Shown here: one piece after another, positions 25,309 through 25,834 of the stretch
Layout of the letters: each line of letters begins with the position of its first letter
Numbering within the stretch: the first letter of the stretch is position 1
Virus genome (UHGV): UHGV-0263858
Reading direction: 5' to 3' (one strand)
Source: a virus
DNA: 28,280 bases
Translations under genes and position numbers: made by a program
Notes under the pieces: generated by a model
What the model was told of the DNA's origin: nothing
What the model saw: only the letters and a program-made list of their open reading frames with translations
Databases searched by the model: none

Positions 25309-25383
25309 TGGAGCGGGTAGCGGGAATCGAACCCGCATCATCAGCTTGGAAGGCTGAGGTAATAGCCATTATACGATGCCCGC
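25309..25383 (-). tRNA. glyT: tRNA-Gly (anticodon UCC), glyT-like
   Basis: Reverse complement GCGGGCATCGTATAATGGCTATTACCTCAGCCTTCCAAGCTGATGATGCGGGTTCGATTCCCGCTACCCGCTCCA folds as a cloverleaf with anticodon TCC and encoded CCA. The acceptor stem shows a C6-A67 mispair as read. Confidence 0.9.
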
Positions 25384-25499
25384 ATCCTGGAACTCGGCTA
25401 CCTGATTTTCATTCTGCACTGAATATCGAGAGAAGCTCTCTTTATTCGAGCCGGTAAGCGAACTTATCGTCTCGGGCTACGCCATCGCGTGGCCGAAAT

Positions 25500-25584
25500 T
25501 GGTGGTGGGGGAAGGATTCGAACCTTCGAAGTCTGTGACGGCAGATTTACAGTCTGCTCCCTTTGGCCGCTCGGGAACCCCACC
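25500..25584 (-). tRNA. tyrU: tRNA-Tyr (anticodon GUA), tyrU-like
   Basis: Reverse complement GGTGGGGTTCCCGAGCGGCCAAAGGGAGCAGACTGTAAATCTGCCGTCACAGACTTCGAAGGTTCGAATCCTTCCCCCACCACCA. 85 nt with a long variable arm; matches E. coli tyrU as recalled. Confidence 0.92.
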
Positions 25585-25592
25585 GGACTTGA

Positions 25593-25668
25593 TGGTGCCG
25601 ACTACCGGAATCGAACTGGTGACCTACTGATTACAAGTCGGTTGCTCTTCCTGTTGAGCCAAGTCGGC
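25593..25668 (-). tRNA. thrU: tRNA-Thr (anticodon UGU), thrU-like
   Basis: Reverse complement GCCGACTTGGCTCAACAGGAAGAGCAACCGACTTGTAATCAGTAGGTCACCAGTTCGATTCCGGTAGTCGGCACCA. 76 nt, anticodon TGT. The anticodon stem shows a C29-A41 mispair as read. It lies 8 bp upstream of tRNA-Tyr. Confidence 0.88.
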
Positions 25669-25834
25669 GTTGGCCCTTCGGGGGAGCGATATCATCCATG
25701 AAGAGGAGTTCCCCTCAGAACCGCTGCGAATAATAATGAGGGCAGTTATTTTTTCAATAAAAAATAATGTTATTATGTGTAAATATACGCATAGATTTTT
25801 ATTATTTGCAAAATAAAGCAATGCACAAGTACAT
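25669..25834 (-). promoter_or_regulatory. AT-rich upstream region of the tRNA cluster (probable promoter with UP-element-like sequence)
   Basis: A markedly AT-rich 160-bp stretch lies directly 5' of tRNA-Thr, with a GC-rich discriminator-like CGCTCCCCC next to the tRNA start. The -10 and -35 hexamers are not confidently placed. Confidence 0.35.

Follow-up and report, generated by a model that had tools for sequence, protein, structure and literature searches.

In Escherichia coli, the leader of the tufB operon carries the tRNA genes thrU, tyrU and glyT, which are followed by thrT and tufB. A related pair is found in the late region of lambdoid (Stx, SubAB and other) prophages, where a Thr and a Gly tRNA gene are separated by the trinucleotide TAT only; examples are the Stx2f phage phi467 (LN997803) and a prophage of E. 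coli STEC005. A more distant parallel is ileZ-argN-argO, a cluster of tRNA genes carried by Stx phages, for example 933W. Its tRNAs likewise lie downstream of Q and upstream of the toxin and lysis genes, and are thought to supply rare-codon decoding for the late genes. Here we analysed the virus genome UHGV-0263858, a stretch of 28,280 nucleotides (the window), which contains a Thr-Tyr-Gly tRNA cluster. Sequence comparisons identify it as a tyrU-bearing variant of the very common prophage Thr-Gly module, probably generated by exchange with the tufB-operon leader; the lambdoid E. coli prophage module has probably gained the host tyrU recently, through exchange with the thrU-tyrU-glyT operon. 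The locus differs from ileZ-argN-argO, which consists of other tRNAs, has no sequence relation to it and gives no sign of having exchanged sequence with a host operon recently. The same trio, Met-like(CAT), Arg(TCG) and Arg(TCT), was present in two other loci, L008 and L019.

Exactly three tRNA genes were detected by ARAGORN and Rfam (RF00005). They all lie on the minus strand of the window, in the transcription order Thr, Tyr, Gly:

25593-25668, minus strand, tRNA-Thr(UGU) (ARAGORN; Rfam RF00005, 61.8 bits)
25500-25584, minus strand, tRNA-Tyr(GUA) (ARAGORN; Rfam RF00005, 53.4 bits)
25309-25383, minus strand, tRNA-Gly(UCC), a hybrid with the host-type C6 (25378) and the phage-type A67 (25318) (ARAGORN; Rfam RF00005, 60.3 bits)

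The covariance-model scores of Thr, Tyr and Gly were all far above the gathering score of 29 bits, and the anticodons were called independently by ARAGORN. Thr and Tyr are separated by an 8-nt spacer, TCAAGTCC, and Tyr and Gly by one of 116 nt. The cluster is bordered by a DPPY N6/N4 DNA methyltransferase on one side and by a block of TerB-like, holin, endolysin and terminase genes on the other. An initial annotation, made from the letters alone, had described a thr-tyr-gly cluster between a methyltransferase and the lysis cassette, and this was borne out by ARAGORN, Rfam and Pfam; its description was otherwise correct and required amendment in the strand, which is minus, and in the distance to the terminators.

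The 360 nt that span Thr position 1 through Gly position 75 are 98.3% identical to the chromosomal thrU-tyrU-glyT of all complete E. coli genomes (354/360 positions), which confirmed the resemblance to these genes and to their 8- and 116-nt spacers that had been proposed. Five of the six mismatches are in Thr (positions 9, 15, 16, 20 and 29) and one is in Gly (position 67, linear position 66); the homology to the host begins and ends precisely at the tRNA ends. The inner 209 nt (25384-25592), which comprise spacer, tyrU and spacer (8, 85 and 116 nt), show 100% identity with the E. coli chromosome. The window therefore has the tRNA order, orientation, anticodons, both spacers and an unchanged tyrU in common with the tufB operon leader, whereas it differs in the five Thr positions and Gly position 67, in the lack of the coaA and host promoter side and of thrT and tufB, and in its location inside a prophage late region. 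Neither the host promoter region nor coaA is present upstream of the window Thr, where the sequence is identical to prophage. The AT-rich upstream region (166 nt), previously counted as a likeness to the host, turned out to be phage sequence with no homology to the host thrU promoter. The absence of thrT-tufB after glyT had been noticed correctly: host homology stops at the last Gly base, and from there onward the sequence is phage DNA unrelated to thrT-tufB, the flank adjoining Gly being GCGAAAGTGTTAAAC.

The 116-nt tyrU-glyT spacer was at least 99% identical in 5,416 of 5,421 complete E. coli genomes, where it occupied 5,425 places and is thus essentially single-copy; Salmonella copies were only 97–98% identical. 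We consider E. coli to be the donor. Six plasmid hits to the spacer were all mislabelled chromosomes or fragments, the phage records contained it only in two Salmonella bacterial contigs filed among phages, and a 42-nt piece of it had no hits in IMG/VR.

Among the complete E. coli genomes, the best matches to the wider region were lambdoid prophages which covered it in two pieces and had annotated tRNA-Thr, tRNA-Gly and DNA-methyltransferase genes. In the prophage of STEC005 (L001), Thr and Gly are separated by TAT only, Tyr is missing, and the gene order is Q, ORF6N, OB-fold protein, a small open reading frame (ORF), methyltransferase, Thr, Gly, TerB, DUF3927, holin, holin, M15 peptidase and terminase. 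Window positions 28280-25592 are identical to L001 3621-6309 (100% over 2,689 nt), and positions 25385-19200 correspond to L001 6310-12495 (6,186 nt), where Gly position 6 is one of four mismatches. The sole structural difference between the two is an insertion:

25386..25591, minus strand, 206-bp insertion relative to the sister prophages, consisting of host spacer 1, tyrU and host spacer 2 (BLAST breakpoints against L001)

The 3-nt gap between Thr and Gly was found in all 19 related phage or prophage loci that were fetched, and Thr-TAT-Gly occurred in at least 239 IMG/VR module copies, with no Tyr among the copies listed. The TAT junction and the U6:A67 Gly are common to the modules L004, L005 and L007, the flanks of which are only about 80% identical. 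In phi467, both tRNAs are 100% identical to thrU and glyT. The window shares with this module a late-strand site flanked by Q/methyltransferase (or stx) and the lysis cassette, the homologous flanks with a promoter-like site, a GGTTCYGAGGG leader hairpin and downstream terminators, the Thr allele and the Gly A67. It differs in having the host base at Gly position 6 and, with the 206-bp tyrU insertion, a separation of 209 nt including tyrU in place of the TAT spacer, and so represents a variant of the module. Loci with an identical methyltransferase or terminase (annotated start) had Thr-Gly only, other tRNAs (Met/Arg) or none. The identical methyltransferase protein occurred on contigs from 97 assembly-index blocks; the 24 of these contigs that were read came down to six distinct places, and all six had Thr-Gly only.

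The window Thr is the phage allele of STEC005, with all five differences from thrU (G9, A15, C16, A20 and C29). The identical allele was present in 13 of the 19 related prophage loci fetched; it had no matches in 185,579 species-representative genomes and was found in one IMG/VR prophage. Its substitutions are clustered in 21 nt, which suggests an import from a diverged tRNA and not five separate mutations. The window Gly, on the other hand, is a mosaic, with the host C at position 6 (T in the phage) and the phage A at position 67 (G in the host). The host-derived tract extends at least over 25378-25591 and at most over 25319-25639. Both of its ends fall inside the only two long identical stretches, which are 48 nt (Thr 30-76 plus T) and 59 nt (Gly 7-65) in length. 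The locus thus has the make-up of a recombinant allele, namely a mosaic of diagnostic single-nucleotide differences, switch points within identical stretches and two known parental forms. Besides the window, the five-substitution Thr allele is carried by L001, L003, L008-L016, L020, L021 and L023.

Two C-A stem mispairs, at Thr 29:41 and Gly 6:67, had been reported by the initial annotation, and alignment to the host tRNAs demonstrated that both are real. Host thrU pairs U29 with A41, where the window Thr has C29·A41; at the Gly positions 6 and 67 (linear positions 6 and 66) the host has C6-G67, the phage U6-A67 and the window C6·A67. The origins of the two mispairs appear to be different. Thr C29·A41 is best read as part of an older inherited allele that is shared by related prophages, and Gly C6·A67 as a recombination scar, since the recombination endpoint falls between positions 6 and 67.

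A wider survey of the module in IMG/VR (L029-L267, at least 239 copies) revealed two common Thr alleles (host-like; C16+C20) and two common Gly alleles (C6:G67; U6:A67). All four combinations were found, with 58, 36, 24 and 18 copies among the matches listed, and this mixture suggests that the two tRNAs are often shuffled among phages and/or with their hosts. Among the same matches, U6·G67 intermediates numbered four copies versus a single copy of C6·A67 (L102), which suggests a compensatory path at Gly 6:67 through a G-U wobble pair.

The TAT junction and the U6:A67 Gly occur in relatives with flanks of about 80% identity, and the five-substitution Thr occurs in close relatives only; therefore, the Tyr-less arrangement is ancestral and that of the window derived. 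In addition, tyrU and its non-coding spacers show no change from the host and the adjacent Thr shows five, which marks Tyr as a recent gain. The import from the host would then consist of the inner 206 bp and Gly position 6 only, the Thr-TAT-Gly pair having already been in the lineage. The alternative offered earlier, that the phage carries a captured copy of the operon leader tRNAs, therefore proved right in substance, the site being one at which tRNAs are carried by lambdoid phages, and its extent has to be narrowed to the spacer-tyrU-spacer segment and Gly position 6 as the recently imported part.

The following course of events can be proposed. The starting module would have contained the promoter-like site, the leader hairpin, Thr(UGU), Gly(UCC), about 355 nt of sequence, two terminators and the lysis genes, with Thr and Gly being near-copies of the thrU and glyT genes that flank tyrU in the host operon. 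Homologous exchange, either by a double crossover, by gap-repair gene conversion, or by entry via one tRNA and exit via the other, would have put tyrU, together with the 8- and 116-nt spacers that enclose it in the host, in the place of the phage TAT spacer. One crossover would lie in the 48-nt stretch (Thr 30-76 plus T) and the second in the 59-nt stretch (Gly 7-65), and the product would be a phage Thr allele, a host-identical Tyr and a hybrid Gly with the C6·A67 mispair. We infer that the pathway was either RecA or a phage recombinase of the Red/RecET type. Identities of 48 and 59 nt are in the range that supports RecA-dependent exchange, and arms of 36–50 nt are used with Red/RecET-type recombinases in recombineering. 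The Thr-Gly module itself probably goes back to an old capture of the host operon from which tyrU was then deleted, because the order and orientation of the two genes are the same, the phi467 tRNAs are identical to those of the host, and TAT is composed of the first base of host spacer 1 and the last two bases of host spacer 2.

Searches for the junctions returned few matches. None of the 5,426 complete E. coli genomes covered 80% or more of the 701-nt region, and the left junction, from the phage C29 through spacer 1 into Tyr, had no exact hits in the viral, metagenome and species-representative genome collections. No exact protein was on record for the ORFs spanning the junctions (25489-25701 and 25281-25457); the same was true of the window holin variant and of the long-start form of the terminase. 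The scan for the right junction (spacer end plus hybrid Gly) gave three metagenome hits. One of them, L025 (3750-4261), is the chromosomal thrU-tyrU-glyT-thrT operon of another species, with spacers of 14 and 211 nt, the native glyT of which is identical in sequence to the window hybrid. Therefore, C6·A67 is a naturally occurring allele, and in L025 it presumably belongs to a working gene. The other two, the independent contigs L026 (2263-2622, minus strand) and L027 (3478-3837, plus strand), have the order murB-birA-coaA-thrU-tyrU-Gly(C6..A67) followed by phage genes for holins, GH108 endolysin, terminase and portal; here the E. coli 5' part of Gly (C6) is joined to the phage 3' part (A67) within the 59-nt stretch. 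A junction of this type was absent from the 5,426 complete E. coli genomes. L026 and L027 may be real single-crossover cointegrates, in which case they would represent an intermediate of an exchange that goes in via Gly and out via Thr, or chimeric contigs; we lean towards chimeric contigs.

This leaning makes an assembly artefact the main rival to a real exchange, although we regard it as unlikely. The source would be an ordinary Thr-TAT-Gly prophage and an ordinary tufB operon, and the assembler or a gap-closer would have routed the prophage contig through the middle segment of the host operon, since two alternative paths are bracketed by the shared 48- and 59-nt stretches. These are the only long identical stretches, and both switch points fall precisely within them; the arrangement was found nowhere else in the collections searched. 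L026 and L027 change from host to phage in the same Gly stretch, and L027 is a SPAdes-style NODE contig with a coverage of 4.4. However, the artefact requires two coordinated mis-joins. An assembly with k of 55 or more, as is usual for isolates, resolves the 48-nt Thr stretch, and no k-mer of that size would link C29 to spacer 1; moreover, ordinary bubble merging could not bridge the 206-nt difference between the alternative paths. The same switch points are expected from a real recombinant, so that their pattern does not discriminate between the two.

Several observations weigh against a recent gain of tyrU by exchange. The arrangement is known from one sequence only. An assembler with k below 48 could thread a path from phage to host and back to phage through the shared stretches; the host-phage joins of L026 and L027, absent from the complete genomes, are located at the same Gly stretch, and chimeric joins at this stretch probably do occur in assemblies. 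The expression signals around the cluster are consensus matches only. Finally, two of the tRNAs score lower than their host counterparts: the window (phage) Thr allele had 61.8 bits versus 73.8 bits for host thrU, a drop of 12 bits, and the hybrid Gly had 60.3 bits versus 64.9 for the host and 65.6 for the phage form, a drop of about 5 bits. The Tyr score (53.4 bits) equalled that of the host tyrU copy. As minimum free energy folding of single tRNAs was uninformative, with host thrU itself giving no cloverleaf without modifications, the effects on the stems were judged by fixed-structure energies together with the covariance-model scores. In the fixed cloverleaf, the hybrid Gly had an energy of -20.6 versus -27.3 and -25.3 kcal/mol, i.e., it was weaker by 4.7–6.7 kcal/mol, so that its acceptor stem is weakened by both measures. 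All three scores nevertheless remain well above the Rfam threshold, which makes tRNA function plausible, and we infer that all three tRNAs are functional.

An ancestral retention, in which thrU-tyrU-glyT was captured whole and kept here while tyrU was lost in all relatives, is very unlikely. The phage pair does have the order and orientation of thrU and glyT, and the composition of TAT is what would be left if tyrU had been deleted long ago from a captured operon. Nevertheless, tyrU and the spacers (209 nt) have no differences from E. coli next to a Thr with five, and the flanks are 100% and 99.9% identical to those of a Tyr-less prophage. The TAT junction is found both in modules with flanks of about 80% identity and in at least 239 IMG/VR contigs, and it is so widespread that the tyrU deletion must be far older than the window lineage.

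That the cluster is the chromosome's own thrU-tyrU-glyT, cut off from thrT-tufB at a prophage junction, is hardly conceivable: it would agree with the 98.3% identity to the host locus, the identical spacers and the fact that such host-phage joins have at least been assembled in L026 and L027, but the upstream 2.7 kb are identical to the STEC005 prophage with neither coaA nor a thrU promoter, the Thr is a phage-only five-substitution allele found in 0 of 185,579 species-representative genomes, and the prophage's host flank is located at flk, at the opposite end of the window. The proposal of a rearranged host locus at a prophage junction was thus rejected on the identities of the prophage flanks, both of which belong to a prophage of the STEC005 type, the true boundary being about 22 kb away at flk. 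Two findings had been named in advance as contrary to the initial annotation, continuous host chromosome on both sides and stem positions matching the host exactly; neither was made, as both flanks lack host DNA and the stems differ from those of the host at these positions.

Phage tRNAs are assumed to be host-derived, and recent acquisitions in which both parents and both breakpoints are visible have rarely been documented. If the molecule carrying the recent tyrU gain is real, copies of tRNA genes in host and prophage can exchange through arms of only about 50–60 nt, and a whole new tRNA gene can be gained in one step. Such exchange could help to explain why the prophage Thr and Gly stay near host identity while their flanks drift to about 80%, and it can create hybrid tRNAs with stem mispairs. 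If it is an artefact, the locus is a warning that short identical tRNA stretches yield host-phage assembly chimeras.

The cluster is embedded in a prophage late region, for which the following features were determined:

25835..26878, minus strand, DNA N6/N4 methyltransferase, the upstream neighbour (Pfam PF01555, N6_N4 methylase, E 2.3e-43; TDPPYF motif in the translation)
25730..25757, minus strand, sigma-70 promoter-like site TTGAAA-16-TATTAT (10/12), 62 nt upstream of Thr (pattern scan)
25672..25722, minus strand, leader hairpin GGTTCU..GGGG / CCCC..AGGGCC, ending 3 nt before the Thr 5' end (RNAalifold, six divergent modules)
24953-24932 and 24903-24886, minus strand, two consecutive intrinsic-terminator-like hairpins with T-runs (pattern scan and sequence reading)
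23042..24742, minus strand, lysis cassette with TerB-like, DUF3927, the holins Phage_holin_8 and Phage_holin_3_7, and M15 endolysin (Pfam)

The match to PF01555 and the TDPPYF motif agreed with the earlier identification of the upstream neighbour as a DPPY methyltransferase. Together with an OB-fold protein gene and a small ORF, it forms the upstream 2.7 kb of prophage. The gene boundaries of the lysis cassette were carried over from the STEC005 annotation, and beyond the cassette the terminase genes Nu1 and gpA follow on the same strand (Pfam). In the sister prophages, Rfam also detected the isrK Hfq-binding RNA, the C4 antisense RNA and an a1/b1 target (L001 2720-2919; L004 120-308). These RNAs are located directly 3' of the Q antiterminator gene and 5' of ORF6N, a position that lies beyond the right end of the window.

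Equivalents of the promoter-like hexamers are kept in L008, L004 and L005 despite flanks that are only about 80% identical. In the RNAalifold alignment of the leader hairpin, which included six sequences only, all ten pairs were kept; one pair had changed in a compensatory way (UA to CG) and several showed G-U changes. With six sequences, the support for the hairpin is weak. The same hairpin, GGTTCYGAGGG ... CCC(C)GARGRRCC, is also found directly 5' of Thr in L004, L005, L006, L007 and L008; its stem pairing is kept, whereas the loop of about 35 nt and the remaining leader diverge. It could have a role in processing, pausing or antitermination. Tandem terminators and phage genes had been described after glyT; both elements are present, and the terminator-like hairpins are located 356 and 406 nt past Gly, ahead of the TerB-like and lysis genes, and thus not immediately after Gly. 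Equivalent terminators were found downstream of Gly in L004 and L007. The stretch between Gly and the first terminator (24954-25308, minus strand, about 355 nt) contained no convincing ORF and had no Rfam hit. It is identical in STEC005, diverges directly past Gly in more distant modules, and would share a transcript with the tRNAs.

With these elements, the module resembles a small transcription unit of its own within the late region. The tRNAs are presumably transcribed from the local promoter and/or by Q-antiterminated late transcription that continues into the lysis genes. Codon usage was compared between 28 prophage ORFs and seven host genes. ACA accounted for 23% of the Thr codons in the prophage versus 13% in the host, and GGA for 19% versus 9.6% of the Gly codons; Tyr codons were barely enriched (29.6 versus 24.8 per 1000). 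A plausible role of the Thr/Gly pair is to decode ACA and GGA/GGG, codons that are about twofold commoner in prophage than in host genes. This bias therefore gives the Thr-Gly pair a rationale in codon supply and the Tyr gain none, and the gained Tyr is most likely a neutral passenger.

Another role for a phage-borne tRNA-Tyr is known from anti-phage defence. Phage was rescued from retron-Eco7 by E. coli TyrU when a strong phage promoter drove its expression (PMC11555353), and a higher dosage of cleavable tRNA-Tyr allowed T6 to escape Septu (PMC13096335). The tRNA-Tyr counter-defence of T5/T6 against retron-Eco7 and Septu PtuAB has a phage-borne tRNA-Tyr in common with the window, and the resemblance is one of possible function only: T5 and T6 are virulent and have both large tRNA regions and dedicated promoters that are strong, whereas the window belongs to a temperate phage with a single host-identical copy. 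The arrangement might be real, reflect a general homology-arm route of phage tRNA array growth, and have made the captured tyrU, placed under phage expression signals, adaptive through its dosage against tRNA-Tyr-cleaving defences such as Septu and retron-Eco7; we consider this combination quite doubtful. Were it true, resident phage tRNAs would act as portable homology arms of about 50–60 nt that copy in whatever lies between the host matches, and L026 and L027 could be single-crossover intermediates.

The left 3 kb of the window (boundary region 1-3200) are E. coli chromosome beside the prophage end, with flk, a DUF4875 gene and the toxin gene hok/gef, and match the STEC316 and STEC711 chromosomes at 99.9% identity. 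On this basis, the host organism is E. coli; the rest of the window is mostly prophage, read on the minus strand. STEC316, STEC711 and STEC719 have the flk-side end and the first two prophage ORFs (3215-5484) in common, and STEC316, the one strain inspected, diverges beyond 5484. Given this common end and the subsequent divergence, the prophages at the flk site are mosaic.

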